Shown piece after piece: positions 350-17,365 of a DNA stretch of 64,000 bases. The notes below the pieces were generated by a model. That model was given only the letters and a program-made list of their open reading frames with translations, was not told the DNA's origin and ran no database searches. Every line of letters starts with the position of its first letter. Within the stretch, counting starts at the first letter, position 1. A program made the position numbers and the translations under genes. The DNA comes from Candidatus Moraniibacteriota bacterium (GTDB taxonomy: Bacteria; Patescibacteriota; Minisyncoccia; Moranbacterales; UBA1568): NCBI GenBank assembly GCA_016699975.1, contig CP064994.1, positions 917,874 through 981,873 on the forward strand, written 5' to 3'.

Positions 350-1264
350 TTAAGCAACCGCCGCCATGCCAGCCGAGAGCTCGGCGATTTCCTGCGTCAC
401 CTTCGCCTGTCGAAGCTGGTTGTACAAAAGTGTAAAGCTCTCGGTCATTTCTTTCGACGCATCGGTTGCGTTTCGCATTGCAACCATTCGCGCCGCTTCT
501 TCGGATGCCTTCGACTCAAAAAGCGCATGAAGTATTTGCATTTCCGTGAGTCGAAAGAGAAGAGTCGAAAGAACCCTTTCGGCGGAAGGCTCGATGACAT
601 ATTCGCTGCGCGCGCTCGATACCGTCTCAATAGGGAGCGGCTCGCCCATTTCACCCAATTCTTCTTCGGTATCGACTCGTGAAAACGGAAGAATCCGCCG
701 AACCCGCGGCTTCTGGAGGAGCGCCGAAACAAAATCGGTATACACCAAAAATACGTCGCTCCACCGCGAGTCTTCAAATCCCGAAAAGAGAAGGGACGCG
801 ACCGATCGAACGCTTTTGGATGTCGGCGAAAGCGCAACTTCCGGAAACGACGCCATAATGTCTCCCGGCAAGAAGCGCAGGCCCGTATCGCCCTTCTTTC
901 CAAGCGAGAGGTATTCGAATCGGACATCTGGCGAAAGTAAAGTCATCGAGACCACTTCCGATTTGATCCGCCGAAAAATTTGCGCGTTAAAGGATCCACA
1001 GAGGCCGCGACTCGAGGTCACAACAACAAAGAGCACCGTTTTCCTTGGACGCTCCGAAAGAAGAGGGAGGGTACTCACAATCTCGGGTGCCGCCCGAAGC
1101 GCCCGGAGCACTTCGAGCGCATGAAACGCATACGGACGCATCGCGTACACGCCTTCTACTGCTTTTCGCATTTTAACCGACGAGATCATTTCCATGGCAC
1201 GGGTGATTTTTCCCGTGTTCTTCACGCTCTTGATCCGCCGACGAATTTCACGAGTTCCAGGCAT
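350..1264 (-). CDS. atpG: F0F1 ATP synthase gamma subunit
   Basis: 304-aa ORF MPGTREIRRRIKSVKNTGKITRAMEMISSVKMRKA… has the typical gamma N-terminus and C-terminal helix (…QLRQAKVTQEIAELSAGMAAVA). Confidence 0.9.
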   Translation of the reverse strand: MPGTREIRRRIKSVKNTGKITRAMEMISSVKMRKAVEGVYAMRPYAFHALEVLRALRAAPEIVSTLPLLSERPRKTVLFVVVTSSRGLCGSFNAQIFRRIKSEVVSMTLLSPDVRFEYLSLGKKGDTGLRFLPGDIMASFPEVALSPTSKSVRSVASLLFSGFEDSRWSDVFLVYTDFVSALLQKPRVRRILPFSRVDTEEELGEMGEPLPIETVSSARSEYVIEPSAERVLSTLLFRLTEMQILHALFESKASEEAARMVAMRNATDASKEMTESFTLLYNQLRQAKVTQEIAELSAGMAAVA

Positions 1265-1323
1265 ATCAAAGATTCAACAATCAAAAGGGGGAAACGAAAA
1301 ATAATTTCTTCCACGATTATGCA

Positions 1324-2832
1324 TTACTCCAAGAAGAGTTCATTAAAATGCTCAATATGTTTTTTGAGAAGCGCCTCGCCTTCTTCGTCGAGCGCTTTTC
1401 GTTCACGAATGAGAGAGAGGATATCATCGCCATCCCGCTCCAAATATTCGAGAAATCCTTCCTCCCAACGAGCAATTTTTTCGATGATGATTTCATCGAG
1501 GAACCCGCGGGTGAGCGCATAGAGCACTGCCACTTCTTTTTCGACAGAGAGCGGCGCGTACTGTTTCTGTTTCAAAATCTCAACGCCACGCTTTCCGCGG
1601 TTTATCTGCTCGCGCGTTTTCTCGTCGAGATCGGAACCGAATTGCGCGAAAGCTTCGAGCTCTCGAAACTGCGCGAGATCGAGGCGAAGCGTCCCAGCTA
1701 CTTGCTTCATCGCTTTGATCTGCGCAGAACTTCCAACACGCGACACCGAAAGTCCCACATTGAGTGCGGGACGAATTCCTTTGTAGAAAAGATCTGACTC
1801 CAAATAAATTTGCCCGTCGGTAATCGAGATTACATTGGTGGGAATGTAGGCCGAGACATCGCCCGCTTGGGTTTCGATAATGGGAAGCGCGGTAATGGAG
1901 CCGCCACCCGCTTCTTTCGAAAGTTTTGCGCTCCGCTCAAGAAGACGCGAGTGAAGATAAAAGACGTCTCCCGGATATGCCTCGCGTCCCGGCGGGCGAC
2001 GCAAGATGAGTGAAATCTGCCGATACGATGCCGCGTGTTTCGAGAGATCGTCATAGACGACGAGCGCGTGTTTCCCTGCTTCCAGGAAGTGCTCCGCCAT
2101 CGCGCACCCGGCGTAGGGCGCAAGAAACGAGAGAGCCGCCGGCTCGGAAGCGCCCGCCACAACAACCGTCGTGTACTCCATGGCCCCGCCTTTTTCCAAC
2201 TCGGAGACGATGCGCGCCACCTTCGATTCTTTTTGACCAATCGCCACGTAGAAACAAAGAACATTCTGACCTTTCTGATTGAGAATGGTGTCGATCGCAA
2301 CCGCGGTCTTCCCGGTCTGCCGGTCCCCGATAATGAGCTCTCGCTGACCGCGGCCGATCGGAATAAGGGCGTCGATTGCTTTGATACCCGTCTGAAGCGG
2401 CTCCTTCGGAGACTCCCGGAGCATCACACCGGGCGCCACACGCTCGACCGATCGGGAGCCTTCGCTCTCGATCCCTCCCTTGCCGTCAATCGGTTCCCCG
2501 AGCACGTTCACAACGCGGCCAATGACTGCTTTGCCAACCGGAACCGAGAGAATTTTTCCTGTCGGCCGAACAATTCCGCCTTCAGCGATTGATCCTGCTT
2601 CGCCGAGAAGAATGATACCCGCAAGATCTTCCTCGAGATTCAAGGCAACTCCGAAAGTGCCGTTGTCAAATTCGACCATTTCGCCCGCCGCCACTTCGGA
2701 CAGTCCCGATACCCGCGCAACACCATCGCCAATTTCGAGTACCACTCCCGTTTGCTCGCGCTTTTCGGTCATCTCGAATTGCTCGATTCGCCGCCGAATT
2801 TCTTCCGCCATTGAATGTACGTTCTGTGTCAT
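1324..2832 (-). CDS. atpA: F0F1 ATP synthase alpha subunit
   Basis: Internal Met of the 633-aa ORF: [20 protein letters not shown]…[20 protein letters not shown] (Walker A)…[20 protein letters not shown]. About 503 aa of typical alpha. The 131 codons upstream in the same frame belong to the delta gene. Confidence 0.9.
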
Positions 2833-3323
2833 AGAAACATCGAAAATAAAACTCTGAATGAATCTCTGCCCACCGATACCAAAGTAAAGTCGCCAAAAAA
2901 TTCCGGAAAAGAAACAATTACGATTCTTTTTCAAAAATCGCGAAAGCTGGCGAAGCCTCCCGCCCATACTTGCGTCGAACGTTTCGTTTTCTGTTTGAAA
3001 GACAGCTCCGCCAAGAATGTCCGGCCGGAGTCGCGCTTTGAGCGCGATTTGATTCTCGCCGAAAATACGCTTCCCTTCATCAAGAACCGCTTCGAGCTCC
3101 GTCTCCGAAAGTTTTTTCGAAGAGAGCACTTCCACCGATCGCACGCCCGATCGCTCTTTTTCCAATCGCTCGAGGGCCCGAAGAATAGTGTCCACATCGC
3201 GCCTTCGACCATCCTTCCGAAGCAAAAAAGAAATCGATCAATTCGAATACGGCGCTCCGAAGGACTCGCGTCAACGAGAGCGGCGTATACTCCTTCCGCA
3301 TATTGTCTTGGCGTCATGCGCAT
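2833..3323 (-). CDS. atpH: F0F1 ATP synthase delta (OSCP) subunit, with apparent frame discontinuities
   Basis: N-terminus [32 protein letters not shown] (delta-like ARPYA motif) begins at 3323 in one frame. The delta C-terminal domain (…[25 protein letters not shown]) lies in another frame from about 3225. The switch sits at a T6/A6 run (3222-3228). No stop codon separates it from atpA in that frame. Confidence 0.5.
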
Positions 3324-3649
3324 AGAAAATCATGTATCTCTCGAACTCTTGAACATTCGAGGAAAGGGAGTACTTTTTTCCCTCGCTTCCGACACGGCCA
3401 CGCCTTCAACACTGTGTCGCAACGAGAATGCCCTCACCTTTCACCCTCTCTTTCAAATTCGCTTCGTCTCAATTTTTTTCGAAAAACTCCGACTTCTCTC
3501 ACCCCCTTCTCCTTCTTACAAAACCAATCGCCACCATTCTCTCATCTTTTAAGAATCCGTTCTTCAGGAAGATTCTTGATTCAACAGAAGCACTGAAAAC
3601 TATTGCGTCTGACCTCGTCATTTTTTGTGACTTTCTCTCCCCCTTCCAC

Positions 3650-4180
3650 TCACGAACGTTGAGCGCCTTCTGCGCTTTCTTCTCTTCCTTCCGCTCTCCG
3701 CACTGCTTCACGAACCAACGCTTCATCCTTCTCCGACGCCATTTTTTCACCGAGCACTTTTTCGGTCGCACGAAGGACGAGGTCGGTAAGCTCGCCTTTC
3801 ATGTCGGAGCGAAAACGCTCTCCTTCGGCTTCAATCTTCCGACGCGCCTCATCAAGAATCCACTCGGCTTCGCGGTGCGATTCGGCAACAAGGAGATCTC
3901 CGGTTTTCGCAGCTGATTCTTTCGCGGCACGCAAGAGTTCCGCTGCTTCACGACGCGCGTTCGAAAGCACCTCCTTTTCCTTCGCTTCGAGTTCAGTGAG
4001 CTTCTCGCTTGCTTTCTTTGCGTCGCGAAGTCCCACTTCGATTTTTTTCGAACGATGCTCGAGAAAATCAAGCATCGGACGATAAGCAAACTTCCGCAAA
4101 ACAAAGAGAAGCACCAAAAAGTTCACGATTTGCGCGAGAAGCAACTTCCAATCGATACCGAGTTTCAACAAGACTTCCAT
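3650..4180 (-). CDS. atpF: F0F1 ATP synthase subunit b
   Basis: 176 aa with an N-terminal TM helix (LLAQIVNFLVLLFVLRKFAYRP) and a long charged coiled-coil tail typical of subunit b. Lies between atpE and atpH. Confidence 0.85.
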   Translation of the reverse strand: MEVLLKLGIDWKLLLAQIVNFLVLLFVLRKFAYRPMLDFLEHRSKKIEVGLRDAKKASEKLTELEAKEKEVLSNARREAAELLRAAKESAAKTGDLLVAESHREAEWILDEARRKIEAEGERFRSDMKGELTDLVLRATEKVLGEKMASEKDEALVREAVRRAEGREESAEGAQRS

Positions 4181-4288
4181 ACAAGTGAAAGATTCGAAAA
4201 TTCAAAATCACATCTCTCCTTTCAGTTGATCGGCCCGCACTCTCTGCGAGCACTTCCAAGAAAAGAGAGTATGCGAAAACTACTGGCT

Positions 4289-4561
<273 letters not shown>

Positions 4562-5066
4562 TTACTGATAAATGCAATGGATAATTATGAATCAAAGCAA
4601 TGAAATATAAATTTCATCAATCGTCAAGAACCCTTCTGATTTTTCCATATATGCTGCTGATAATATTCAAGCGCTTCCTCTCTGGAATCAGTCATTATTC
4701 CATTCCTTTCCCTTCGACTCAAAATTTTTCAACAATCTTTTCGCAAACAGCCTCCAAGGCTTCTTGGTTCACTTCCTCTCTTTTATGCTTTTCAAAAGAA
4801 GGGAACTCTTGAGAATTTTCAATACTCATAAAATGAATGTTAAGAAAAAAATCCTTCAAAGTTTTTATCTCTACTTTTAAGTCTTCTTTCACTCTTATTT
4901 CAAAAAATAATTCAGAAACGACGATAAGTATTTTTCGACATGAGAATGTGAGAAGCAAAATCGAGGGGAATAGTGATGAAATTTCGATAAGATATCAAGA
5001 TATAATGTTTCCAAAACCCGAAAAGACTAGAACTCTAACCATAAACGATTTTGAGCTCAATATCCA

Positions 5067-5813
5067 TCAATGCCCGTGTTCCGCTTCGAGAGTTGCCATT
5101 TTGAGGAAAACAAGCGTCAGAATTGAAAAAACGGCCGCCTGCACCACGCCCACGAACAGCTCCAGAAAGAGAAACGGAATCGGCAGCAAAAACGGTACGA
5201 GGTGAAGAATAACAATGAGGAGCACTTCTCCTGCGAAGATATTGCCGAAGAGCCGAAAGGAAAACGACAGGACGCGCGTCGCCTCACCAAGAAGTTCGAG
5301 GAGACCCATAAAAGTTCCGACGCCGTAGGGCTTCCGAAACGGGCTCACCAAGAATTTTCTGGCATATGGAAGAACACCGATCGTAGCAATACCGATACCC
5401 TGAACCAGAAACACGACCGTGAGAGAAAGCGCAAGCGTCATATTGAGATCCGCCGAGGCGCTTCTCAGAAAGGGAGTAATTTCCTCTCCGTGCCGAATGC
5501 CAACGGTGCCAAGACCCGGCATGAGTTCCACCCAATTCGAGAACAAGACGAAAAAAAAGACTGTTGCGATAATGGGGAAAAACTTCCGCGCAAGCCGTTC
5601 ATCTCCCGCCACTTCCCCGACCAGATTCCAGAGCGATTCAAAAATCACTTCGACAGCCGCCTGAAACGGCCCCGGAACTTTTTTGAGTTTTCGAAAGAAC
5701 GTCGTCGAGAACAGAATCAGCAGAGAACTGATGGCCAGGGTCAGAAGAATGGTATTCGTGATCGGGAACCCTCCCCACCGAAAGAGCTCTTCCGCCGCAA
5801 TGGAAATATTCAT
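5067..5813 (-). CDS. atpB: F0F1 ATP synthase subunit a
   Basis: 248-aa polytopic membrane protein with the conserved …SFSFRLFGNIFAGEVLL… region carrying the essential Arg of subunit a. Confidence 0.9.
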   Translation of the reverse strand: MNISIAAEELFRWGGFPITNTILLTLAISSLLILFSTTFFRKLKKVPGPFQAAVEVIFESLWNLVGEVAGDERLARKFFPIIATVFFFVLFSNWVELMPGLGTVGIRHGEEITPFLRSASADLNMTLALSLTVVFLVQGIGIATIGVLPYARKFLVSPFRKPYGVGTFMGLLELLGEATRVLSFSFRLFGNIFAGEVLLIVILHLVPFLLPIPFLFLELFVGVVQAAVFSILTLVFLKMATLEAEHGH

Positions 5814-5933
5814 AGCGCGACAAGTGGAATCGACATCAACAACAAGCGCTCTTTACAAACAAAAACATTCCGCCCAAAGGCAGAGTCTCACATTTCCTTT
5901 CCTTCTTCAGTATTCCCGAAAAACGGGTTCCCG

Positions 5934-6203
5934 TCAATCTTTCCAATTCCACCATTTGAGTTTCTCGGGGTCGTGCCTCGTATGACTTGCAAAGAAAACG
6001 GCTGTACGAAAAACATACAACACGCACCGATCAATACGGGCGCCGCGTATTCGGCACAGTGATTCGTACAAAACTTCCGGATCCTGTCCTCGAAGATCCG
6101 TGGGCTCCCTTATGCCGAGATCACACAGATCCTCTGCAATACTTTTTCCCACTCCCGGAATATCAAGAAGACTGACCTTCTTTATTTTCTTCATACATTT
6201 CAC
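5934..6203 (-). CDS. Small helix-hairpin-helix DNA-binding protein (Cdd1 / pathogenicity-locus-like HhH family)
   Basis: 89 aa: …VSLLDIPGVGKSIAEDLCDLGIREPTDLRGQDPEVLYESLC…RIDRCVLYVF matches the HhH (GIG-type) motif of PF11731-like proteins. Directly upstream of atpB. Confidence 0.55.
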   Translation of the reverse strand: MKCMKKIKKVSLLDIPGVGKSIAEDLCDLGIREPTDLRGQDPEVLYESLCRIRGARIDRCVLYVFRTAVFFASHTRHDPEKLKWWNWKD

Positions 6204-6315
6204 AGGGTTCTTTTTTCAAGAATTACTGTCACGCTCCCACATGGTGAGAGAGAATCCATTATGAAGAGTAACCCTCTCACCTCTCCAACTGATTTCAAGA
6301 GAAACCAACGGAGCC

Positions 6316-6335
6316 GCGTGGTACAATAGTATCAT
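6316..6335 (+). promoter_or_regulatory. Candidate extended -10 promoter (TGgTACAAT) for the LamG gene; leader very short
   Basis: cgTGGTACAATagt lies 16-22 nt upstream of ATG 6344. No Shine-Dalgarno sequence is evident. Confidence 0.25.
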
Positions 6336-6343
6336 TCGCTTCT

Positions 6344-8605
6344 ATGAAGCACTTGTCAAAAACATTTTTTCGCCACCTCGTTCTTTCTCGTTCCTTCCAA
6401 TGGGCGGGGGTTGTTTTTCTCCTGATCATCCTCTCTGGCACTTTTTTGCACTATCGAGGAAACGCTGACACCATGATAAACGCGCCGACCGTGACAAATG
6501 ACACGCTCACCGAAGGCCTCGTTGGCCACTGGACATTCGACGGAAATGAAACCCAAGGCACCGTCGTCGTCGACCGATCGGGAAATGGAAACAACGGAAC
6601 CAGAGTCGGCGCTCCACAAAACACTGAAGGCCGTTTCGGGCAGGCGCTTCGATTCAATGGAACAAGCAATTTCGTTTCGATACCCAATACTCCTTCCCTC
6701 AGACCAACTACTGCCATCACCGTTTCGGCGTGGATCAAAACTCTTCCAAAAAATTTGTACCCGTTTATCGTGAGCAAAAAATACGACACTGACTTCGAAT
6801 CTTATGGACTGAGCGACTTTACAGATGTCGGAACCAATATCGGTTTTTGCATCAAGTGGGGCGCCATGGGAAACGAGTATACTTGCTCCGGGGTCGCAAG
6901 CGAATCATTGGGATTCTGGAACGATAGTTGGGTCCACGTCGTCGGAACGTATGACAAATCTTTCCTCCGGATCTATGTAAACGGGGGAGAAGTGGGAAGC
7001 GGAACACCTGAAACTCGAGATATTTTTTACGGCACTTCTCCCGACAATATTTTTATCGGATCCTTTGACGCTGCCAAGGGATTTTTTTCCGGAAGCATTG
7101 ATGATGTGCGTATCTATAATCGCGCGCTCCCCCCCGAAGACATCTTCACTCTCTCCCAGAGAGGAAAACACCTCATTCAAGCTGCTCCCGAGAATTCCCT
7201 TTCCCAAGGAATCCTCGGCTACTGGAAATTCGATGAAGGAGCAGGTACAGGAAGTGTCTCCGACGCAAGCGGGAACGCCACGGCGCTTACCATGTATTCT
7301 TTCGCGAATACCGATTGGACCACAGGAAAAGTTGGCCCCTTCTCGCTCAATTTTGATGGAGTGTCGAAACGACTTGCTGCAAGTGACCCTCCGATTCTTG
7401 ATTTCGATGCCTCAAAAAGCTTCACCCTCACGGGATGGTTTTATCGAAATAGCCTATCGGCGACCCATACCATTCTCGCCAAACGAAACGGCACTGCAAA
7501 TACCGACGACGGCTATATACTCTCCATAAATGGAGCGACCGACCAACTCATTTTCGAAGCATCCGATAATGCCGATACGGATGAGTATCAGATCGCCAGC
7601 GCTTCTCTTTTCAACGTTCCCGGATGGAATCACTTCGCCATTGTCTGGGACGACGACAGTCCACTCGAAACGACAATGTACACAAATGGCCAAAAAGAAG
7701 CGGCGTCAAAAACCGGAACCCTCTCGAGCATCGGGAACCTCTCAAACGCACTCGCCTTTACTATCGGCGCGGAAAGCGACGGTGGAAATCCTTTCGACGG
7801 GAGCCTCGATGACATTCGCGTTTACGGATACCCACTGTCCACAGAAGAAATCGGGACACTTTTTCGAACTGGCGCTCCCGCGGAACCCGTCGATACCCAG
7901 GTTATCGGTCACTGGACATTCGACGGGCCGGACATTCAAGGAACAAGAGCTCTCGACCGATCAAAAAATTCGCTTCAAGGAACACTCACGAACGGTCCTC
8001 AACCCGCAATCGGAAGACTCGGCCAAGCGCTGCGATTCGACGGCGTCGATGATTTCGTCTCTCTCGGAGACACGCCTCTTTTCACGCTTGATCCGTCGAA
8101 AAATTATACCTGGTCCATGTGGATACGAGGATCCGATTACTCTGGAACTTTCCAAAATATTCTGTGGTCTCAAGTGCAGGATACAAATAACGCGCTCTTG
8201 GTTTCGGCGCGTTCCATTTCGGGACATCCAGATTTTGGATCGGTCACCGATGGACTCTTTGTAACGTGGACCAATGCCGGATCCATTTGTTCTGGCGAAG
8301 CGACAACCGATTCTGTGTTGGAGAAAAACGCGTGGACACACATCGTGCTTCAGTATGAGGGAACCCTCCCTGCGGGTGCGCGCTTTTCCATCTGGGTAAA
8401 TAGTGTCGACCGCTCGAAAAATACGAATGCCTCACACTGCTCCCCGGGGAGCATCAACCCAACAGTCACCGCGCTCGGGAACAACGGGACTCTCCCGAGC
8501 CAGGGATTTGAGGGAAGTCTCGACGATATACGCCTGTACGATCGGCTTCTTACGGCAGAAGAAATACACACTCTTTTCCACTCTGGCACTCTTTCCCGGA
8601 ATTAA
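6344..8605 (+). CDS. Secreted or surface protein with three LamG (concanavalin-A-like lectin/glucanase, Laminin_G_3) domains
   Basis: 753 aa. N-terminal hydrophobic signal (VVFLLIILSGTFL). Three roughly 200-aa units each end in the Laminin_G_3 signature: FSGSIDDVRIYNRALPPEDIFTL, FDGSLDDIRVYGYPLSTEEIGTLF, FEGSLDDIRLYDRLLTAEEIHTLF. Each unit is preceded by GxWxFDG motifs. Confidence 0.8.
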   Translation: MKHLSKTFFRHLVLSRSFQWAGVVFLLIILSGTFLHYRGNADTMINAPTVTNDTLTEGLVGHWTFDGNETQGTVVVDRSGNGNNGTRVGAPQNTEGRFGQALRFNGTSNFVSIPNTPSLRPTTAITVSAWIKTLPKNLYPFIVSKKYDTDFESYGLSDFTDVGTNIGFCIKWGAMGNEYTCSGVASESLGFWNDSWVHVVGTYDKSFLRIYVNGGEVGSGTPETRDIFYGTSPDNIFIGSFDAAKGFFSGSIDDVRIYNRALPPEDIFTLSQRGKHLIQAAPENSLSQGILGYWKFDEGAGTGSVSDASGNATALTMYSFANTDWTTGKVGPFSLNFDGVSKRLAASDPPILDFDASKSFTLTGWFYRNSLSATHTILAKRNGTANTDDGYILSINGATDQLIFEASDNADTDEYQIASASLFNVPGWNHFAIVWDDDSPLETTMYTNGQKEAASKTGTLSSIGNLSNALAFTIGAESDGGNPFDGSLDDIRVYGYPLSTEEIGTLFRTGAPAEPVDTQVIGHWTFDGPDIQGTRALDRSKNSLQGTLTNGPQPAIGRLGQALRFDGVDDFVSLGDTPLFTLDPSKNYTWSMWIRGSDYSGTFQNILWSQVQDTNNALLVSARSISGHPDFGSVTDGLFVTWTNAGSICSGEATTDSVLEKNAWTHIVLQYEGTLPAGARFSIWVNSVDRSKNTNASHCSPGSINPTVTALGNNGTLPSQGFEGSLDDIRLYDRLLTAEEIHTLFHSGTLSRN

Positions 8606-9007
8606 TCCGACTCCCCCTCCTGATTCCTCCTCTCAACCAGAAAGGAGAAGTCCATGAAACTCTTTTAAGAATTTCTGAAGTGAAGGGCAGGGAGAGAAAA
8701 ATGGCGAGTCACGGCATCTCAAACCAGTGCCCCAAGGTTTGAAGTGTGAGAAAAGAAAGTTTGATTCCGGAAGGATTGTTGAGACAAGCCTGAAACTCTC
8801 AAGCAAGCATGCCAGAGAAAAATTTTTCCAAGAAGAAAAATTTTCTCAGTTTCTTTTTCATCTCTTTCAAAAAAAGAGTTTGGCATCACTCTCGTTTCCG
8901 ATGAAAACGAGTGAACGCGATCAGAAAAGAAGCGCTCGGTGTGAAAAAAGAGAAAGAGAAGCGACAGAGGTCATGAGCGCGTCTTCAAACTCGTCCACGT
9001 GAACAGC

Positions 9008-9045
9008 AAAAGAAAAATCTCCGACCTCGAAGTCGGAGATTTCCA
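9008..9045 (-). terminator. Intrinsic terminator downstream of the 1432-aa surface-protein gene
   Basis: On the minus strand: ggaaaTCTCCGACttcgagGTCGGAGAtttttctttt (8-bp perfect stem plus T-run). Confidence 0.55.
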
Positions 9046-9138
9046 AAACCAAAGTGCCCGTCGAAAAATTTCTGATGGAATTTGTGCGTCGCTCTTCCCG
9101 AATTTCCGAAGAAGAGCATGCTTCAGAAACGAAATACG

Positions 9139-12100
9139 CTACCGCTCTTCCACCAGCACCCAATCGAAGGGAATTTCTTCAGAAGTTTCGGTACGCACTT
9201 CTACTGTAAAGCTTTTTCCCTCATCAACTTTGGTAACCGCAAGCGGCGCGCTCGTCGCTTTTTTTGGCGTCACAAAAATTCTCGCTCCATTCGAAACCGC
9301 TTTCGTGGAAACAACCACTTTCTTTCCGTCCCGAGCGGCAACCTCCGGATCGTCCATGGCATCTCCCGTCCGATCATCCTTCCCGTCAGGAATGTCGTTT
9401 CCGGATTCATCGGTTTTCCCTTTGACATCAATGGCTTTCGCAAACAAAGTTGCCGCACCAATCGATGGCGCCTCGTCATCACTCACGGTAACCACAAGCG
9501 ATTCCGCTCGCAGTTCCTTCACACGCAGAACGCCTTTCGAGAGATCGAGATTTCCATCGGCGTCTTTCACGAGGACACTCCCCAAAGAAAGCGTATTGTA
9601 AAAATCAAGGAGAGTCTCATTCGAACTCTGCAGAAGTGACACGGCCGATTCAAGCGTTTCCAACTTTTTGGTGACTCCCGACATATCGGCAGTGTGTTGT
9701 TCGAATGTCGCAAGCCGCATCTTCGTTTCGGCATCCGATTGAGCAACGAGCGAGAAGCGCTCCTCGACCGACGTCTCCAGATCGGCAAGTGTGGTCGCGT
9801 GCCCGTCGGTCGAGAGCGTCACGCTTTCGAGCGTCGAGGCCAGATCCGACACACGACGATCCTCTTCTTGAACAGCCTTCACGAGAACCGGGATAAATTC
9901 CGCCTTCGAAATTCCCAGGTAACCGTTCTCGCCGGTCGAAATAACATTGGGATACACCTCTTGCACTTCTTGCGCAATAAAACCGGTGAGACGCGGACCG
10001 TCCGCATGGCTTACGCGATTAAAATCAACAACGCGTAAACGATTGATCACACCGAGTCCCTCAGTCAGGGTATTCTCGATATTCGTTTTGGTGCGAATAT
10101 CGGACGGATCGGTAATCGCAAATGTTCCCGCCGTATTCGCAATGTATCCGATTTGGGTGCCGTCACCATCGAGCGCATTTAAATAGTACGTCGTTCCACT
10201 TCCGTCATCCGCTCCGGCCTGCACTACCATGCCGTATCGATTGGCGTTGTTGCCATCGTTTCCAACACGCATTGCGTACCCGCTTGCTCGGTCGTCGCTC
10301 ACATCGAGACGAGAGCTCGGCGTCGTCGTTCCAATACCAACACCAAGCGAACCGACGCCGCCCGACCCATCAGCCACTCCATACACTGTAAGCACGGGAT
10401 TGGTGTCGAGTTGCGCCGAGTAACTGAGAACGGTATTCGAAGGCACGGCGGGTGTCACGGCCATATCAATCCATGAAAGGATACCCCCGTCTTCGGGAAA
10501 GTACTGCGCGCCCAGACGAGCGTCCGCGATTGTTGTGGTCCCCGTCGAAGTGATCGCAAAATCAGCCGAGGATCCAAGTGTATTTCCGGCATCAATCTTA
10601 AACGTATCCGCATCACTCGTATCGACACCGAGAGAAAATTTCACGCCCAGTGTCGTCGCGCTCGTGCGAAACTGAAGGAGAGGATCATGCGTCGTCGTCG
10701 CCGAAGTAATGGTAAGCACTTCATCGTTTGCGGAGGCTCCGTAGAGTTCAAGCGGCGATACAGGACTCGCGGTACCAATTCCGACCGCCCCTGCCCCATT
10801 TACCACAAAGGGGGTCGTGTCGCCAATCACATCATCGATGCGAAAAGCAAGATTGTTCGTGCCTGTTGCCGCATGCTCGATAAGGAGCGAGGTGTTCGCG
10901 TTTTGTACTCCGGTATTTTTGAGTGCAAGAAGAGAGCCTGTATTGGCGGCAGCGCTTCCCGAAAGCGAGAGGGTTGCAAGACTTCCTGAAAGTCCCGTCG
11001 AAGAAGAGAGGATTGAGAGTCCCGAGCCACTCGTGAGTCCATTCACGCTCATGGCAAGTGCGGTTTCCGTATCGATTACGTTGGCAGTAATATTGACGGC
11101 GTTCGCTGCATTCGACGCTTGAACAATATCAAGCGCCGAAACTGGTGCAGTCGCATTGAGCTGATTCAGCCCGAACAAAAATCCGGAATCCGTTCCCCCA
11201 GAAGCAGGATTTTCAAACACTACAGAATCGTCGAGCGAGGAAAGTCGGAGCGTCGCATTCGAACCGTCAGCATCAAAATCATAGGCTCTTTGGAGCGGTG
11301 TTTCATATCCGGCACACAGACTTCCTGATGTACAAATTGTCCCGCTCTCATTGGGGAGCGTCCAGGTGCGCGAAGCAGTCAGATTCGCACGAGTAAGTTG
11401 TCCACGTCCATCTGGATCATACCAATAGAGCGAGGTTCCCTGTGTCGAAGTCGATGTAAACGCCTCTCCTGCCGAAACATCGCCGATCGCGGTTATGTCT
11501 CCAATTCCTCCCCCGCCTGACGAGACCCATGAGAATCCGCCCGTCCCCGAATTAAATGTGAGAATCTGCCCATCAAGCGGAGCGCCTGATGCCCCAAGAT
11601 CAATACCAAGCACGCTTCCATTTTCAATTTCCGCGGAATCAATACTCACGCCAAGGGAGGATTCGAGATTAATAGTTCCCACGCCATTTGCGATCGTGAC
11701 GCTCCCCGCCAAAGAGGTAAGGGTTCCGAGAGTAGGCGCGCCGGAAGCTATCCCTATAAGAAGCTGCCCGTTTCCCAGAATGCCAAGCGACTGGATCGCA
11801 CCTGCTGCGTTCCCATAGAGTATGCCACCCGACGGAAACGAAGCATTTCCTGTTCCACCATGCGAAACTGAAAGTGCAGGACTATCAACTGACCAAACTC
11901 CGGATGACAGAAATGGTACGCCGGTGAATGAGGAGGTATCGATTCCTGTTCCACCATGCGAAACTGAAAGTGCGGGACTATCAACTGACCAAACTCCGGA
12001 TGACAGAAATGGTACGCCAGTGAATGAGGAGGTATCGATTCCTGTTCCACCATGCGAAACTGAAAGTGCGGGACTATCAACTGACCAAACTCCGGATGAC

Positions 12101-13437
12101 AGAAATGGTACGCCAGTGAATGAGGAGGTATCGATTCCTGTTCCACCATGCGAAACTGAAAGTGCGGGACTATCAACTGACCAAACTCCGGATGACAGAA
12201 ATGGTACGCCAGTGAATGAGGAGGTATCGATTCCTGTTCCACCATGCGAAACTGAAAGTGCAGGACTATCAACTGACCAAACTCCGGATGACAGAAATGG
12301 TACGCCAGTGAATGAGGAGGTATCGATTCCTGTTCCACCTCGAACCGCGGAAAGATAATTTTCTCCGGAAAGTGTGGTGCCGTTTATCCAATACGAAACC
12401 TGGCCCGGCGATCCGGAACCGTTCACCATTCCCGCAAATGCCGAAGTGAAAGAAGAGAACGTCGTCCCATCGTCCGAGAATTGCCACTCACCAATTCCTC
12501 CGTCATAGCGAAGCGCGGGGGCATTCGAAGCACTTGAGATTGACAAGCGAAACTGATTCGAGTTTATTGCAATCCCGGAACCAATGGTAAAAACCGTTGA
12601 GTTCGTCGCCGTATCGGTATTCTGCGTGTGTCCATTTCCTGAAATTGGTGCCACACGATCAAGGAGAGACTGAAAGTCATCGGAAAGATTCGAGAGATCG
12701 CCCGAGAGTGTATCGACATTCTTCGAGAGTGCAGAAACCTCTTTGACCGACGACGTAAAGTCTTTGTTGTCAGCAAGAAGAAGCGTTTTCCCTTTGGTAC
12801 CGGTTGGGAGTTGCTCGATCCCAAGTTTCCCTGCGACGCCATACGTCACAATATCTCCCGCATTGTTCCCGATCGCTCTCCCCCTTAAGAACTGCGAATT
12901 CACCGCATTCGGAAACTTTCCCAATTTTTTCCGCGGCACCATTTCCGCATCCGATTCCACGCGAATGCCCAGAAAATAGTTTCCTCCTTCGAAAGTAAAA
13001 TTATTCGGAAGTGGTGTGCTCTTTCCCAAAAAAGTCTCGAGCACACCGTTTTTTACTTCTACAATCTGTGTTTCTTCCCAGACCCGACTCGCACGATCGG
13101 CATCGGAAGGGTATGGATCCACTTGTGTGCGGTCGGATCGGTAGAGACTAAAGCGCACCGAGTAGGAAGCGTTCGGAACCATCTCTCCGTCTCCCTGGAG
13201 AAGCACCGCCGAAACTGAAATACTGCCGGTATCCGAAGAAGATGCACTTCCTCCAGAAACTTCTTGCGCAAAAACAGCCCGGGGAGCAAGTCCGCAGGCA
13301 AGAAATCCTGTCAGTACGACTACCGAAAGAAGCGAAATGAAAAAATATTTCCTTTCTTTGTTTTGAAAACAATGCATCGAGATTGACACGAAAAAGAAGT
13401 ACCAAATCGAACTTCTCCTCGTCTCCGTCGAGAGCAT
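9139..13437 (-). CDS. Giant (1432 aa) surface protein with 5x32-aa tandem repeats and a C-proximal peptidase S74 / tail-spike intramolecular-chaperone auto-processing domain
   Basis: N-terminal signal/TM (LLSVVVLTGFLACGLAPRAVFAQE). Long Gly/Ser/Thr-rich beta-rich body with GTGIDTSSFTGVPFLSSGVWSVDSPALSVSHG x5. Near the C-terminus, DPSDIRTKTNIENT…LRVVDFNRV…GFIAQEVQEVYPNVIS…AEFIPVLVKAVQE matches the S74 chaperone-of-endosialidase domain. It is followed by about 250 aa of coiled-coil and charged tail. Confidence 0.8.
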   Translation of the reverse strand: MLSTETRRSSIWYFFFVSISMHCFQNKERKYFFISLLSVVVLTGFLACGLAPRAVFAQEVSGGSASSSDTGSISVSAVLLQGDGEMVPNASYSVRFSLYRSDRTQVDPYPSDADRASRVWEETQIVEVKNGVLETFLGKSTPLPNNFTFEGGNYFLGIRVESDAEMVPRKKLGKFPNAVNSQFLRGRAIGNNAGDIVTYGVAGKLGIEQLPTGTKGKTLLLADNKDFTSSVKEVSALSKNVDTLSGDLSNLSDDFQSLLDRVAPISGNGHTQNTDTATNSTVFTIGSGIAINSNQFRLSISSASNAPALRYDGGIGEWQFSDDGTTFSSFTSAFAGMVNGSGSPGQVSYWINGTTLSGENYLSAVRGGTGIDTSSFTGVPFLSSGVWSVDSPALSVSHGGTGIDTSSFTGVPFLSSGVWSVDSPALSVSHGGTGIDTSSFTGVPFLSSGVWSVDSPALSVSHGGTGIDTSSFTGVPFLSSGVWSVDSPALSVSHGGTGIDTSSFTGVPFLSSGVWSVDSPALSVSHGGTGNASFPSGGILYGNAAGAIQSLGILGNGQLLIGIASGAPTLGTLTSLAGSVTIANGVGTINLESSLGVSIDSAEIENGSVLGIDLGASGAPLDGQILTFNSGTGGFSWVSSGGGGIGDITAIGDVSAGEAFTSTSTQGTSLYWYDPDGRGQLTRANLTASRTWTLPNESGTICTSGSLCAGYETPLQRAYDFDADGSNATLRLSSLDDSVVFENPASGGTDSGFLFGLNQLNATAPVSALDIVQASNAANAVNITANVIDTETALAMSVNGLTSGSGLSILSSSTGLSGSLATLSLSGSAAANTGSLLALKNTGVQNANTSLLIEHAATGTNNLAFRIDDVIGDTTPFVVNGAGAVGIGTASPVSPLELYGASANDEVLTITSATTTHDPLLQFRTSATTLGVKFSLGVDTSDADTFKIDAGNTLGSSADFAITSTGTTTIADARLGAQYFPEDGGILSWIDMAVTPAVPSNTVLSYSAQLDTNPVLTVYGVADGSGGVGSLGVGIGTTTPSSRLDVSDDRASGYAMRVGNDGNNANRYGMVVQAGADDGSGTTYYLNALDGDGTQIGYIANTAGTFAITDPSDIRTKTNIENTLTEGLGVINRLRVVDFNRVSHADGPRLTGFIAQEVQEVYPNVISTGENGYLGISKAEFIPVLVKAVQEEDRRVSDLASTLESVTLSTDGHATTLADLETSVEERFSLVAQSDAETKMRLATFEQHTADMSGVTKKLETLESAVSLLQSSNETLLDFYNTLSLGSVLVKDADGNLDLSKGVLRVKELRAESLVVTVSDDEAPSIGAATLFAKAIDVKGKTDESGNDIPDGKDDRTGDAMDDPEVAARDGKKVVVSTKAVSNGARIFVTPKKATSAPLAVTKVDEGKSFTVEVRTETSEEIPFDWVLVEER
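11855..12334. repeat. Five near-identical tandem copies of a 96-bp (32-codon) repeat inside the giant surface-protein gene
   Basis: The unit ccaccatgcgaaactgaaagtgc[a/g]ggactatcaactgaccaaactccggatgacagaaatggtacgcc[a/g]gtgaatgaggaggtatcgattcctgtt recurs at 11855, 11951, 12047, 12143 and 12239. Copies differ at only one or two positions. The overlapping shadow ORFs 11754..12338 and 11822..12358 are artefacts of it. Confidence 0.9.
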
Positions 13438-13537
13438 CCGAATAAAGAAACGCGAGGGCGTTCCTTCCTCATAGTACCTCCAAAATCACAAAAAAACAAT
13501 GTGTTTCTTTTTGAATTTCGTTCTCTAGAGATCCTGA

Positions 13538-14218
13538 TTATTTTTTGATTGCCCATCCAAATACCTCTTGAAGTGCACCGACGATAAGTTCGAAAAGAGA
13601 AACATTTTTTCGACCGGTCGAAACAGCGTACGCTTCGCTCGTCACTTCGCGACCGTATCGATCGCGAACCGTAATCGTATAAAGATAGGTGGAAGCAAGA
13701 TCGAGTCGTGAGAGAACCGCGCTGTGTGTCATTCCGAATCCTGTTTCCTCGACCGTGTTTTCCGCGCCGAGCGATTTTCCGAATCGCACCGTGGAATTCG
13801 CTGCTTTATTCGTTTGCCACGTAATGAGTACTCGTCCTTCATTCCGACTGGTATTTCCGAGCGTCTCAGCACGAATATCGTCAACGGAAAGCGGGAAAAA
13901 TTCCTCGTCGCGAGTGCGAAGCGCAATATCGCTTCCGACCGAAAGCGCTCCCACACGATAATGCTCACTCGAGAGTGTTCCGGGAGAGGCTTTCGAGATA
14001 TCCTGAAGCGTTCCGGGCACAACAACCGTGTCTTGAGGAAAAATATCAGTGGTCTGAGACCGAGCAATGAGCCATTCCCTTCCGAAAAAACTGAGCGCTC
14101 CCACAATCAAAGCCGCCAGGAGAAGTTGTCCGAAGTGAAGTACCCAACGCAAAAACGGACGACCCTCACACCACGATCGACGTTGGGACTCTAATTGAAA
14201 AGTATGACGTACGGACAT
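13538..14218 (-). CDS. Membrane-anchored hypothetical protein with an Fn3-like (purple-acid-phosphatase-N-like) domain
   Basis: 226 aa with an N-terminal TM helix (LLLAALIVGALSFF). Then …GRVLITWQTNKAANSTVRFGKS…YLYTITVRDRYGRE, an Fn3-like pattern. Sits directly upstream of the giant gene on the same strand. Confidence 0.45.
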   Translation of the reverse strand: MSVRHTFQLESQRRSWCEGRPFLRWVLHFGQLLLAALIVGALSFFGREWLIARSQTTDIFPQDTVVVPGTLQDISKASPGTLSSEHYRVGALSVGSDIALRTRDEEFFPLSVDDIRAETLGNTSRNEGRVLITWQTNKAANSTVRFGKSLGAENTVEETGFGMTHSAVLSRLDLASTYLYTITVRDRYGREVTSEAYAVSTGRKNVSLFELIVGALQEVFGWAIKK

Positions 14219-14629
14219 GGAATATGTGAATGTCGTCTCAAAAGTAAGAGGAAGACGATCGTGAAAATTTTTGAGGAGAAGAGGGTACGAAAGAAGACTG
14301 AGAGATATATCCCATATCAGTGTGACCTATTTGAAAATTCAAAAGATCGAAATTTTTGGTCAGGGAGAATTTTGGGATGATCCTTCGCAGGTATTATAGC
14401 AGAGGAAGAAATGTGATGGAGAAAAGCACTCAAACTTCGACAGTTCAAAAAAGAGTGAGCCCAAAAATTCGAGTTGACAAAATATCCTTTCTTGGATATG
14501 ATCGCTTCGCAGAACGCTCTTTTCTTCGAGAAAACTTTTCACGGATTTCCTGCAAAAAAGTTGAGGAACGACTTCTGGGAACAATGAAGTCGTTCTTCGC
14601 TCCCACATCTGATCGCGCATTATTCATAA

Positions 14630-15799
14630 TTGGTATTCGTTCTCGCTTTATCTTTTCGTCCTATGTCTTTCTCTCTTCCGAACACCCGACCTCACTCATA
14701 TGCCGTCATTATGGCAGGCGGGAGCGGCACACGCCTCTGGCCACTTTCTCGAAAGTCGTCGCCGAAACAATTTCATAATTTCGTCTCCGAATCCGGAGAA
14801 ACACTGATCGAAGAAACCGCGAGTCGTCTCCGACAAGTAGTATCAGACAAAAGCCATCTCTTCGTCTCGACAGGAGAAGCGTATCGCGATCGGATACGAG
14901 AAATTTTTCCTGATCTTCCTGAGAATCGCCTCATCCTCGAACCGGTTGCACGCGGTACGGCGGCCGCACTCGCGCTCATTTCTGCCATCATCACTCACGA
15001 AGATCCTGAGGCAATCATTGCTACCATTCCCTCGGATCACGTCATTGGAAATCCCGAAGAATTTGCCGCAACGCTCCTCTCCGCCTTTGACACTGCGGAA
15101 AAATTTCCGGAAAAAATGGTGACGATCGGAATCAATCCCACCGCCCCCGATACCGGGCTCGGCTACATACAAATGGGAGAAGAAATTGCAACTATCGGCA
15201 ATCATCGCGTGTTTTCGATCGCGATGTTTGCCGAAAAGCCCGATCGAGAAACCGCGGAAGAATATCTGAAGAATTGGGAATACCTGTGGAACGCCGGATA
15301 TTTTATTTTTTCCGGAAAAACATTTCTCTCTTGGGTGAAGCGCTATACACCGCTTCTCGCGAAAGCGATTGATTCGATTGCTCACGAACACGATTTTCCG
15401 CACAACGAAACGCTCGCCCTCGAACGTCTGCGATCGGCATTTGAACCATTACCAACTGAACCCGTCGAGCCCGCCATCATCGAAAAACTCTCTCCTGCGG
15501 AGCGAGCTGTCATTCCCTCTCCCCTTGAGTGGAATGACATTGGAAATTGGTCCGCACTTTTTGACCTCCTGAAGAATCGCCACGACACGCACACGATTGC
15601 ACAGGGAAACCATATCGATGTGGGAAGCGAACATTGTTTCGTTCTCTCAAACGACAAACTGATTGCAACAATCGGCCTTCAGGATACGATCATTGTGGAA
15701 ACACAAGACGCACTCCTTGTTGCCAACAAAAATCGGGTGGACGATATCAAAAAACTGCTCGAGAAACTCCGTGAAGAAAAAGGCGATCAGTATCTCTAG
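14630..15799 (+). CDS. Mannose-1-phosphate guanylyltransferase (GDP-mannose pyrophosphorylase), nucleotidyltransferase family
   Basis: …YAVIMAGGSGTRLWPLSRKSSPKQF… is the canonical ManC/CpsB N-terminal motif, with a 350-aa transferase body. The true start may be an internal Met near 14663 or 14711. Confidence 0.8.
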   Translation: MVFVLALSFRPMSFSLPNTRPHSYAVIMAGGSGTRLWPLSRKSSPKQFHNFVSESGETLIEETASRLRQVVSDKSHLFVSTGEAYRDRIREIFPDLPENRLILEPVARGTAAALALISAIITHEDPEAIIATIPSDHVIGNPEEFAATLLSAFDTAEKFPEKMVTIGINPTAPDTGLGYIQMGEEIATIGNHRVFSIAMFAEKPDRETAEEYLKNWEYLWNAGYFIFSGKTFLSWVKRYTPLLAKAIDSIAHEHDFPHNETLALERLRSAFEPLPTEPVEPAIIEKLSPAERAVIPSPLEWNDIGNWSALFDLLKNRHDTHTIAQGNHIDVGSEHCFVLSNDKLIATIGLQDTIIVETQDALLVANKNRVDDIKKLLEKLREEKGDQYL

Positions 15800-15878
15800 C
15801 GCGCGTCTCAAAAATTTTTCACGAACACAACCTTCGATCCTGTGAGGTTCCAAATTTTTCACGACCTCTCCAATGAAA

Positions 15879-15906
15879 ACCCCCGCAGAACGCGGGGGTT
15901 TTCATT
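15879..15906 (+). terminator. Intrinsic terminator after manC
   Basis: aaaaCCCCCGCagaaCGCGGGGGttttcattctt: 7-bp GC stem, 4-nt loop, T-run. Confidence 0.6.
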
Positions 15907-16246
15907 CTTCTTGAGAGGAGCGAAACGGCATCGCTTCTCCGTAATTTTTCGTCTCATGAAAAACGCTCACAATCGTCTCTCTGCTCTTCTTTGAAATAAG
16001 CCCAAAGAAGAGAATCAGAGAAACGATGCTCGATTCAAGGGAGGGAGAAGCCACCGGTGGCGCCCTGGTAGTCTCTGCGCACGTTCACGGTCTAGAGTGA
16101 GGCGTTTGGTGGTCGACGAAAAACGAATAAAGCTCTTCTTCGAATGCTTTTCGCTCCGTTTGTTCTGAAGAGTGATGCATCAAAAGAAGTATCTCGTAAA
16201 CCCTCGAAAATTCGAAAATATGAGCTTCTCAAGAAGAAGAACGTCG

Positions 16247-17365
16247 TCACTGCTCGGATGCTTCGTTCCCTGAAAGTTTGGAGAAGATGGCTTTAAATTC
16301 TTCATCCGAAAAATAGTCGATCCGAATAGAGCCACCGGTCGCGGTTTTCGCGATATGAACTTTTGTGCCGAAGCGTTCGGAAAGCGAAGCTTCCCTTGCC
16401 TTGGTATCTGGATCGAAACTGTGGAGGGTCCGCGGGCGGCGCGTGGAAATCGCCCGCGATTTTATTTCTGCTTCGCGCACCGTGAGTCCCTGCCCCACAA
16501 TGAGCTCAAAAAGTGCGCGCTGCTTTTCGGAATTTTCAATCGAAAGGAGTGCTTTGGCATGTCCTTCGGAAATCTTTCCGATGGAAACCGCACGCTGAAT
16601 ATCGATGGGCAGTTGCAAAAGACGCATGGTATTTGCTATCGCACTGCGGCTCCGACCCATTTTTTTGGCAATCTCTTCTTGAGAGAGGTGAAATTCCTTC
16701 GAAAGACGATCATATGCACGCGATTCTTCGATAGGATTGAGATCATGGCGTTGAATATTTTCGATGATCGCAAGCTCGAACTTTTGTTCCTCCTCTGCCT
16801 CTCGAACGAGAACAGGAACTTCCGCGAGTCCGACCATTTTTGCCGCTTCAAGACGTCGCTCGCCAGCGATAAGCTCGAAGGCGTCACCCCGACGAGTCAC
16901 GATGAGCGGCTGCAAAATGCCGTGCTCCCGAATGGATTGCGCCAACTCGAAAAGTTTTTCTTCACTAAACTGAGTACGGGGTTGATGCGGATTCGGCGCC
17001 ACTTTCTCGGTAGGAACCATGAGTGCGTGTCCCGATCCCAATTCGTCTGTCGTGGTCGAAAGCGATTCAACTGCCTGATTGGAAGAGGATGGTTCCGAAC
17101 CGCCCAGTGACGATCCTCCAGGCATGGGCAACACCTGCTCCTTTTCTTCTTGAACAATTTTTTTCAGCGGATGCGTCTCCTGAGGAGTGGGAGATGCGGG
17201 TGCTTCCGTTTCCAAAGACACCGCTGAAAAAACCGGGACCCGCACCGCCTTCTCGGAAGAGGGCGGTTCGGAAAACGGTCCTGGCTTTCGAGGAATAAGC
17301 GAGGAAAGACCCTTTCCAAGTCCATGCGATTGCGCCATACGTTTAGATAGAAAGGAGAAACTCAC
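16247..17365 (-). CDS. parB: Chromosome partitioning protein ParB/Spo0J
   Basis: …LQPLIVTRRGDAFELIAGERRLEAAKMVGLAEVPVLVRE… (ParB box) and …GLTVREAE… HTH. The N-terminal 110 aa are low-complexity, so the true start may be downstream. Confidence 0.85.
   Translation of the reverse strand: MSFSFLSKRMAQSHGLGKGLSSLIPRKPGPFSEPPSSEKAVRVPVFSAVSLETEAPASPTPQETHPLKKIVQEEKEQVLPMPGGSSLGGSEPSSSNQAVESLSTTTDELGSGHALMVPTEKVAPNPHQPRTQFSEEKLFELAQSIREHGILQPLIVTRRGDAFELIAGERRLEAAKMVGLAEVPVLVREAEEEQKFELAIIENIQRHDLNPIEESRAYDRLSKEFHLSQEEIAKKMGRSRSAIANTMRLLQLPIDIQRAVSIGKISEGHAKALLSIENSEKQRALFELIVGQGLTVREAEIKSRAISTRRPRTLHSFDPDTKAREASLSERFGTKVHIAKTATGGSIRIDYFSDEEFKAIFSKLSGNEASEQ

Follow-up and report, generated by a model that had tools for sequence, protein, structure and literature searches.

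A 64,000-nucleotide stretch of the genome of a Candidatus Moraniibacteriota bacterium (contig CP064994.1, positions 917,874 to 981,873; called the window below) carries on its minus strand, at 9139..13437, an uninterrupted open reading frame (ORF) of 1432 amino acids (aa) whose stop codon lies at 9139–9141 in the ORF list. With moderate confidence, we conclude that this gene encodes a host-attachment fibre of the Moranbacteria cell surface: a Sec-secreted, trimeric, self-processing protein that resembles phage tail fibres and follows the plan of the S74 subgroup of the mosaic adhesive trimeric (MAT) fibres of Bdellovibrio (Caulton et al. 2024, PMC10769870). How Patescibacteria (members of the candidate phyla radiation, CPR) recognise and hold their hosts is largely unknown, and almost none of them has been cultured. 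NCBI lists an identical protein of 1416 aa, called from an internal start on a 1.05-Mb contig and named 'MAG: tail fiber domain-containing protein [Candidatus Moraniibacteriota bacterium]'; a search of NCBIfam with the fibre protein gave no match.

The strongest evidence comes from the C-terminal third of the chain. The Pfam family Peptidase_S74 (PF13884) matches aa 1112–1165 (nucleotides (nt) 9943–10104) with an E-value of 1.7e-11 and 44.7 bits, against a curated cut-off of 22, and the match spans positions 1–56 of the 58 in the model. Together with a closing helix that extends to aa 1191, this intramolecular chaperone/auto-protease domain occupies 9865..10104 (minus strand). A preliminary description of the window, prepared by reading the letters without database searches, had placed an S74 domain in this same segment near the C-terminus of the 1432-aa protein, and the Pfam alignment bears it out. 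Five PHROG families of tail-fibre or receptor-binding proteins also match the S74 region (one of them, phrog_1980, reaches back to aa 782), and a fold search of the BFVD database with a model of the region returned 132 matches at E ≤ 0.001, the named ones among the matches listed being phage ICA/S74 or tail-fibre proteins.

The segment D-P-S1112-D-I-R-T-K1117 (DPSDIRTK, beginning at aa 1110) has the SDxxxK spacing, with Ser1112 encoded at nt 10102–10104 and Lys1117 at nt 10087–10089. Both residues align with the equivalent positions in a phage tail fibre (8jov) and in MYRF (7dc3, in whose chain Ala stands at the Ser position). The catalytic pair had initially been given as Ser and Asp; the partner of the serine is instead the lysine of SDxxxK. 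We aligned 118 related S74 domains, comprising 65 followed by the same C-terminal tail as in the fibre protein, 16 without it, 19 from genome loci and 18 from viral contigs, and found both the Ser and the Lys in every one (65/65 tail-bearing and 53/53 others). As judged from these alignments, the S74 domain of the fibre protein is confirmed as genuine and its dyad as intact; neither of the outcomes named beforehand as refuting the assignment, a missing S74 score or a lost dyad, therefore applies. By analogy with characterised members, cleavage is predicted between Pro1111 and Ser1112: the residues before the predicted cut are ...TAGTFAITDP, and the new N-terminus would be SDIRTKTNIENTLTEGLGVINR.

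The same alignment bears on the possibility that the S74 domain is a structural relic, still aiding folding and no longer cutting, so that the protein would stay one chain of about 1400 aa with its C-terminal cassette (described below) as a permanent distal end. The unusual length of that extension and its independent occurrence elsewhere would fit its staying attached. The fibre protein, however, keeps the SD-R-K consensus, and invariance of the dyad across all of the aligned domains, tail-bearing ones included, is hard to explain without catalysis; we therefore regard a non-cutting relic as unlikely.

From Ser1112 to the end of the chain there are 321 aa (267 aa from the end of the Pfam domain), compared with 76–138 aa from S74 start to stop codon in phages (18 S74-bearing ORFs on 17 phage contigs), so the tail is indeed 'unusually long', as it had been called at first reading. 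Chains bearing S74 typically end approximately 80–150 aa past the serine, a trait that is not strictly defining and that the fibre protein lacks. Among cellular proteins, the S74-to-stop distance is 92–240 aa in Bacteroidota and 213–288 aa in Saccharibacteria, where the extensions are different. On four Bacteroidota contigs (L029, L030, L032 and L033) a short coiled coil comes after the S74 domain, and then a sorting domain of the type IX secretion system (T9SS) type (Por_Secre_tail, 25.4 bits in the one tested), an arrangement in which S74 cleavage would part the fibre from its secretion tag.

The stretch past S74 is a discrete cassette of about 240 aa comprising a coiled coil, a beta segment, an acidic linker and a small beta-sandwich. 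It had been described as a coiled-coil and acidic tail; the helices and the acidity (56 D+E against 36 K+R over the whole C-terminal stretch) hold, and the coiled coil turns out to be one element among several. The cassette opens, behind a conserved 'L-TD-N-TTL--LQ-SVD' segment, with a long helix or coiled-coil stalk at 9592..9789 (minus strand, aa 1217–1282), for which AlphaFold2 (AF2) predicts one of two helices in this part of the chain (the other at aa 1178–1205). The stalk helix (model residues 178–243) is modelled with a predicted local distance difference test (pLDDT) score of 70–76; hydrophobic residues fill 0.63–0.78 of its a/d positions, against 0.21–0.28 elsewhere, with a heptad-type periodicity, and its length differs among homologues. 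The second part is a conserved beta segment at 9445..9576 (minus strand, aa 1288–1331; LDFY..KD-GN-DL..G-L-A...APTIG), with invariant or near-invariant D, G, G, L, A, I and G columns in the tail alignment, which AF2 models as strands at low confidence (pLDDT ~50–63).

The third part is an acidic, variable linker with DG-DD motifs at 9322..9435 (minus strand, aa 1335–1372); a 46-residue window across it (aa 1330–1375) contains 12 D/E residues, and in some homologues the linker is enlarged by D-rich, Cys-containing inserts. Judging by its motif, the linker may bind calcium. The cassette ends, at the extreme C-terminus of the protein, with a small beta-sandwich at 9142..9321 (minus strand, aa 1373–1432; DGK-V-V-T-A...IFVTPK...GF-V...FDWVLVEER), within a terminal beta domain that AF2 models at aa ~1330–1429 with a pLDDT of 85–89. 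Its best Foldseek matches are the C-terminal domains of the cyanophage Pam1 tailspike (7eea), the Klebsiella phage K64-1 depolymerase (9k4a) and the R2 pyocin fibre (6ct8), all of them weak but mutually consistent (E 0.02–0.1, probability 0.96–1.0, ~65 columns, root mean square deviation 2.3–3.1). Against the Pfam family K1-lyase_C (PF24146) the fibre protein scores below threshold (20.6–22.5 bits, cut-off 27) and one homologue, P0052, above it (33.5 bits), which suggests resemblance rather than membership. The terminal-domain variants found in Saccharibacteria and in P0060-type proteins weakly resemble H-type lectins.

Searched against 1.84 billion representative proteins, a profile of the tail alone matched at least 2000 protein clusters at E ≤ 0.001, 189 of which reached E ≤ 1e-30. 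The tail almost always lies at the extreme C-terminus (median of 2 residues beyond the profile end) of proteins that are often giant, up to 6169 aa, and all owners with a taxonomic name are Moranbacteria/Moraniibacteriota or 'Patescibacteria group'. It was found in no GenBank phage (by tblastn) and in no PHROG family; a scan of IMG/VR, which reaches close relatives only, matched the S74 part alone and not the tail. We rejected the idea that the tail is a mere extension of a phage-type chaperone, since it follows unrelated modules and was not found in the phage collections searched.

These upstream modules could be classified in 105 representatives with enough sequence before the tail. An S74 domain recognised by hidden Markov model precedes the tail in 50 of them, a divergent S74-like module with an SxxxxK motif in about 10, a module marked by 'ADYAEYF...ISRRNQSL' in 16–17 and one marked by 'GFQIPxYE...DGAVHGLYA' in 14; the remainder have a LamG-like domain, one resembling a carbohydrate-binding module (CBM), a 'PDYVFEPNY...KHLPG' module, or just a membrane helix and coiled coil. 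A Pfam scan of the alternative modules, the ADYAEYF module included, recognised nothing. The two best PDB matches of that module are the 'chaperon domain D4 for tailspike protein Dpo31' (E 0.0095) and phi29 gp12 (E 0.08); both are marginal, and the DYAEYFE and IGLxGQ motifs align between the module and these auto-chaperones. The cassette thus appears usually, though not always, to accompany a self-processing chaperone of one of two phage types that are unrelated to each other, a pairing that fits a role in C-terminal assembly and processing.

Two other arrangements were seen among the tail-bearing proteins. The 14 representatives with the GFQIPxYE module (P0070, P0072, P0076, P0089 and others) carry between fibre and tail a conserved segment of ~180 aa with the motif 'TKV-AG-C-D--F--DT-G--C-DS--GR-Y-RYGG-WHY---GGFQIPNYE...DGAVHGLYARF-DVK'; it had no match in Pfam, the PDB or the PHROGs, and may represent a third type of module for C-terminal processing. 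LamG-like domains stand directly before the tail cassette in P0081, P0099, P0107 and P0110.

The distribution of the tail also supplies the main rival to our reading of the fibre: that S74 does cut, and that the cassette is nevertheless a business end or an anchor. As a head, the coiled-coil stalk with its small, trimeric, lectin-like beta-sandwich would stay non-covalently attached or be released as a soluble trimer; as an anchor, the cassette would be a Patescibacteria-specific C-terminal envelope sorting or anchoring domain, comparable to the T9SS domain behind S74 in some Bacteroidota proteins. Such a role would suit an independent module that occupies the extreme C-terminus in so many clusters, that stands without an auto-chaperone behind LamG-like or CBM-like domains and in short transmembrane and coiled-coil proteins, and whose terminal domain resembles those of tailspikes and depolymerases (or, in some variants, H-type lectins); the Por_Secre_tail domain of the Bacteroidota S74 proteins sits in the same position. 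Every one of the terminal-sandwich matches is sub-threshold or weak, however, and no envelope- or sugar-binding residues were identified. In approximately three quarters of the testable cases the tail follows a module whose known relatives cut themselves, which would sever such a head or anchor from the fibre, and the cleavage dyad just before the tail is strictly conserved. The N-terminal module described below is also the better candidate for the cell-proximal part, as in MAT fibres (PMC10769870). On balance we regard a head or anchor function as a serious minority view, appreciably less probable than a fibre matured by removal of its C-terminus.

The N-terminus of the protein suggests a secreted cellular product. 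Homologues align from M21 of the 1432-aa ORF, so this residue (nt 13377) is probably the true start. From there, aa 21–57 (13267..13377, minus strand) read as a signal peptide with a basic n-region (MHCFQNKERK), a core (YFFISLLSVVVLTGFLACGL) whose Kyte-Doolittle hydropathy exceeds 2, and a cleavage region APRAVFA↓Q; ~19 homologues likewise have a basic n-region and share the '(F/L)A↓Q' site. The assignment, made by inspection of the sequence, agrees with the signal peptide first reported for this ORF and indicates a Sec signal rather than a lipoprotein signal. Lipoprotein anchoring via Cys48 was considered and ruled out, since the Cys is not conserved in homologues and the lipobox is poor.

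Behind the signal peptide lies an N-terminal module (aa ~58–417) that is 31–54% identical to the corresponding part of many giant Moranbacteria and other Patescibacteria proteins. Its core, at 12919..13221 (minus strand, aa ~73–173), is a conserved domain with invariant Y, W, E, G, P and R positions that AF2 models as a beta-sandwich (pLDDT ~90). A fold search of the PDB with this domain gave no significant match, and a profile search found proteins of Patescibacteria type only, with none from Bdellovibrio. Some short or partial Patescibacteria proteins (P0244–P0248 and P0255) match both the N-domain profile and the phage-integrase N-terminal SAM-like domain (PF02899), and one of these is named 'site-specific integrase'; gene calling may have fused separate genes here, or these proteins may hint at fibre switching linked to a recombinase. 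Just after the N-domain, a short heptad-like segment (SVKEVSALSKNVDTLSGDLSNLSDDFQSLLDRV; window ~12640–12770, aa ~224–265) is likewise matched by the tail profile, and the fibre may for this reason have a second, N-proximal coiled-coil collar.

The shaft contains five near-identical tandem repeats of 96 bp (32 aa) at 11847..12339 (minus strand, aa 367–530; GGTGIDTSSFTGVPFLSSGVWSVDSPALSVSH), which Tandem Repeats Finder reports as period 96, 5.1 copies and 99% matches. Degenerate copies flank this core at 68–69% identity, the whole stretch running from 11751 to 12435. A contig from another sample (L037, with protein P0002, from a k141 short-read assembly) is otherwise 99.7–99.9% identical and has a single repeat copy, a difference that may be either real copy-number variation of the shaft or a short-read assembly collapse. 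A search for tip diversification of the diversity-generating retroelement type found no template/variable repeat pair within 5800–16500.

The distal shaft and tip (10105..11094, minus strand, aa 782–1111) carry two VGIGTxxPxxxL capping loops, at aa 885 (VGIGTASPVSPL) and aa 1033 (VGIGTTTPSSRL), and the tip is conserved among homologues. The PHROG family phrog_1980 ('tail fiber protein') matches aa 782–1206 with an E-value of 1.1e-13. A profile of the distal region matches the structures 8ond, 8oml, 8ol4, 8on4 and 8ojn (E 4e-7 to 0.03) on the VGIGTxxPxxxL motifs, which align with the same motif in 8ond, 8oml and 8ol4; these structures are of Bdellovibrio 'cell wall surface anchor family' proteins, that is, MAT fibres (PMC10769870). 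The fibre-like body proposed in the preliminary description is accordingly related to both phage tail fibres and MAT fibres.

The setting of the gene is that of a core chromosome. The window encodes an ATP synthase operon (350–5813), ParB, a ComEC-type protein, a GDP-mannose-type nucleotidyltransferase, FtsZ, FtsA, GyrB, FtsK, RpoB and RpoC. Its 22 larger ORFs, scanned against Pfam, are housekeeping or surface proteins, with no phage, tailocin or injection-system genes among them, as the preliminary description had also noted for the neighbourhood; no tRNA and no further S74 or tail gene was found in the window.

The fibre locus is syntenic in other Moranbacteria chromosomes. In a complete Moraniibacteriota genome (CP064974; L001, 10001–26444) the gene order is ParB, nucleotidyltransferase, small protein and fibre, the last as two consecutive giant ORFs of 2147 aa and >3299 aa that lie 100 nt apart. 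The first bears the N-module of our protein (54% identity); the second starts with a segment that lies mid-protein, and is continuous, in the shaft of our protein, and ends in its distal shaft, S74 domain and tail (52% identity over 514 aa). A frameshift may have split a single gene of ~5500 aa into this pair, or the two genes may be genuine. In either form the middle between the shared N- and C-modules is much longer than in our protein, as would be expected if an adhesin were diversifying, and the variable middle and internal repeats fit an adhesin under such pressure.

Directly upstream of the fibre gene lies a partner gene (13538..14218, minus strand) whose 226-aa product combines a membrane helix at the N-terminus with an FN3-like domain, the latter given by a weak match to Pfam Pur_ac_phosph_N. 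In each of the four loci compared (the window, L001, L002 and L003), the gene next upstream of the fibre encodes this protein or a homologue of it (30–46% identity). On the other side and convergent to the fibre gene, 6344–8605 (plus strand) encodes a secreted protein of 753 aa with three LamG/ConA-like domains; proteins with LamG repeats were seen near the fibre gene at 4/4 loci examined (for example L001 1–5958 and L003 17723–27131).

This context decides against the gene being a remnant or cargo of a prophage, a tailocin or an extracellular contractile injection system, with the fibre belonging to a particle. The S74 domain and distal shaft are strongly similar to phage tail-fibre families, and the name in the NCBI record points the same way. 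Against this stand the housekeeping neighbours without particle genes among the ORFs scanned, the synteny with other Moranbacteria chromosomes, a Sec signal peptide that particle fibres assembled in the cytoplasm do not need, and a tail cassette that was found in no GenBank phage, PHROG family or IMG/VR contig. Given that no particle genes were found in the window and that synteny is conserved, we consider such an origin essentially excluded.

We propose that the signal peptide would carry the chain across the membrane and that the beta-sandwich N-module would then hold the fibre at the producing cell, perhaps through the upstream membrane/FN3 protein. The coiled coil, the terminal beta domain and the S74 chaperone would bring three chains into register from the C-terminal end, and this registration would let the beta-helical shaft and the tip fold as a trimer. 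Once the trimer had folded, Ser1112, activated by Lys1117, would cut the chain just before itself, releasing the 321-aa C-terminal fragment and exposing the conserved tip (aa ~1040–1111), which could then attach to a structure on the surface of a second cell, most probably the host on which this reduced-genome bacterium depends. The domains, the conserved motif, the modular build, the chromosomal setting outside any phage, the gene pair and the broad spread of the cassette are observed; that three chains associate, that the trimer cuts itself and sheds the fragment, and that the fibre is displayed on the surface and binds a host we infer by analogy with the systems compared below.

Several points weigh against this scheme. 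The monomer AF2 model is poor across the S74 part. The predicted post-cleavage fragment is two to four times as long as its counterpart in phages, and that of the Bdellovibrio fibre Bd3182 is 141 aa. Past the signal-peptide cleavage site the chain has no recognisable tie to the cell (no sortase motif and no lipobox), and tethering through the N-domain or the upstream protein is a guess; the dependence of the organism on a host is assumed from its phylum. Finally, the tail also occurs where no auto-chaperone is present, following LamG-like or CBM-like domains or as part of short membrane proteins; it must therefore do something in its own right and is not necessarily a disposable chaperone.

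A few further features of the window deserve mention. Neither the listed start of the fibre ORF (13437) nor the probable one (13377) has an obvious ribosome-binding site; a GGAGG Shine-Dalgarno-like sequence with an ATG is present at 13441–13472 (minus strand), ~35 nt upstream of the listed start and in a different frame. A terminator-like hairpin with a 14-bp stem and a T run lies ~95 nt past the fibre stop codon (9013..9044, minus strand), a consensus match from a pattern scan. Within the ATP synthase operon (1324–3323, minus strand) the delta (OSCP) gene seems to be split: its C-terminal half is in frame with the alpha subunit with no stop between (633-aa ORF), and an N-terminal-looking piece lies in another frame (ORF 2931–3323), which could reflect an assembly frameshift error, a pseudogene or a real delta-alpha fusion. 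At 53586–57518 (minus strand) a 1310-aa protein with Big_13 and FN3 domains occupies the sole part of the window where G+C is raised (0.55) and the GC skew strongly positive (+0.25). This is a further large surface protein, which may be foreign in origin or rich in repeats.

The S74 domain and cellular fibres that end in it were already known, and this protein already bore the generic 'tail fiber domain' label; the advance is therefore incremental rather than categorical. What is new is the MAT-like plan in Patescibacteria, the conserved partner gene and, above all, a widespread cassette that pairs with two kinds of auto-chaperone. The locus suggests that Patescibacteria share the solution of phages and Bdellovibrio, namely long trimeric fibres that would mature by removal of a C-terminal chaperone, with conserved N- and C-modules and a freely exchangeable middle. 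It also offers a defined and testable unit, consisting of the fibre gene, the partner gene, the predicted Pro1111/Ser1112 cut and a previously undescribed cassette present in thousands of protein clusters. More tentatively, and as a possibility that we consider less than probable, the cassette could be a Patescibacteria-wide maturation module of giant surface fibres, joined to at least two unrelated self-cleaving chaperones of phage type, which, with the upstream membrane/FN3 protein, forms a dedicated system for assembly, sorting and release that arms host-attachment fibres whose middles are exchanged and altered in length from strain to strain. If true, this would explain in general terms how these ultra-small episymbionts assemble the apparatus with which they recognise hosts, and how they diversify it.

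Among known systems, the auto-chaperone of the phi29 gp12/Dpo31 type (Peptidase G2-type) is resembled by the ADYAEYF module of the sister proteins, which the same cassette follows; the fibre protein itself does not contain that module. The ICA domain of eukaryotic MYRF is an S74-type domain in a cellular protein with trimerisation-dependent self-cleavage, and 7dc3 is the best single-sequence PDB match of the fibre protein; MYRF differs in being a membrane-bound transcription factor, with no fibre or adhesin role, whose cleavage frees an N-terminal part for the nucleus. Phage S74 tail fibres and tailspikes (K1F endosialidase, T5 pb1, T4-like gp37-type distal fibres; PF13884, MEROPS S74) have the same domain and catalytic motif. 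The distal shaft described here matches a tail-fibre PHROG and its terminal sandwich resembles tailspike C-terminal domains. Unlike these phage proteins, the fibre protein has a signal peptide, is not found in a phage, and continues much further past the start of S74.

The MAT fibres of Bdellovibrio provide the closest parallel. They consist of a signal peptide, a conserved beta-rich N-domain of ~130 aa and a long trimeric beta-helical fibre with the capping-loop motif V-G-x-G/N-x-x-x-P-x-x-x-L, and they end in an S74 tip with SDxxxK in 13 of 21 cases and in another domain in 8; they are located on the predator surface, and Bd3182 cuts itself at the S74 serine, a cleavage blocked by a Ser-to-Ala change (Caulton et al. 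2024, PMC10769870). No Patescibacteria are among the MAT-like proteins of other predators and symbionts given there (Supplementary Table S3), and none of the papers that our literature search returned connected S74 or MAT fibres to Patescibacteria. Bdellovibrio belongs to another phylum, and the envelope of our organism probably has no outer membrane; its S74 domain is not terminal and is followed by the ~240-aa cassette, absent from Bd3182 with its 141-aa post-cleavage fragment, and its fibre gene has a conserved upstream membrane/FN3 partner. The two nevertheless show the same order of parts: a chromosomal cellular protein with a signal peptide, a conserved N-domain similarly rich in beta strands, a capping-loop fibre and an S74 domain with SDxxxK. 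By this order of parts and by the shaft profile, the layout appears to match the MAT S74 subgroup closely, and the fibre protein agrees with the MAT plan in all the features tested. The self-processing, trimeric, adhesin-like surface fibre anticipated in the preliminary description would, by analogy, correspond to what has been demonstrated experimentally for that subgroup (PMC10769870), in another small bacterium that must recognise other bacteria.

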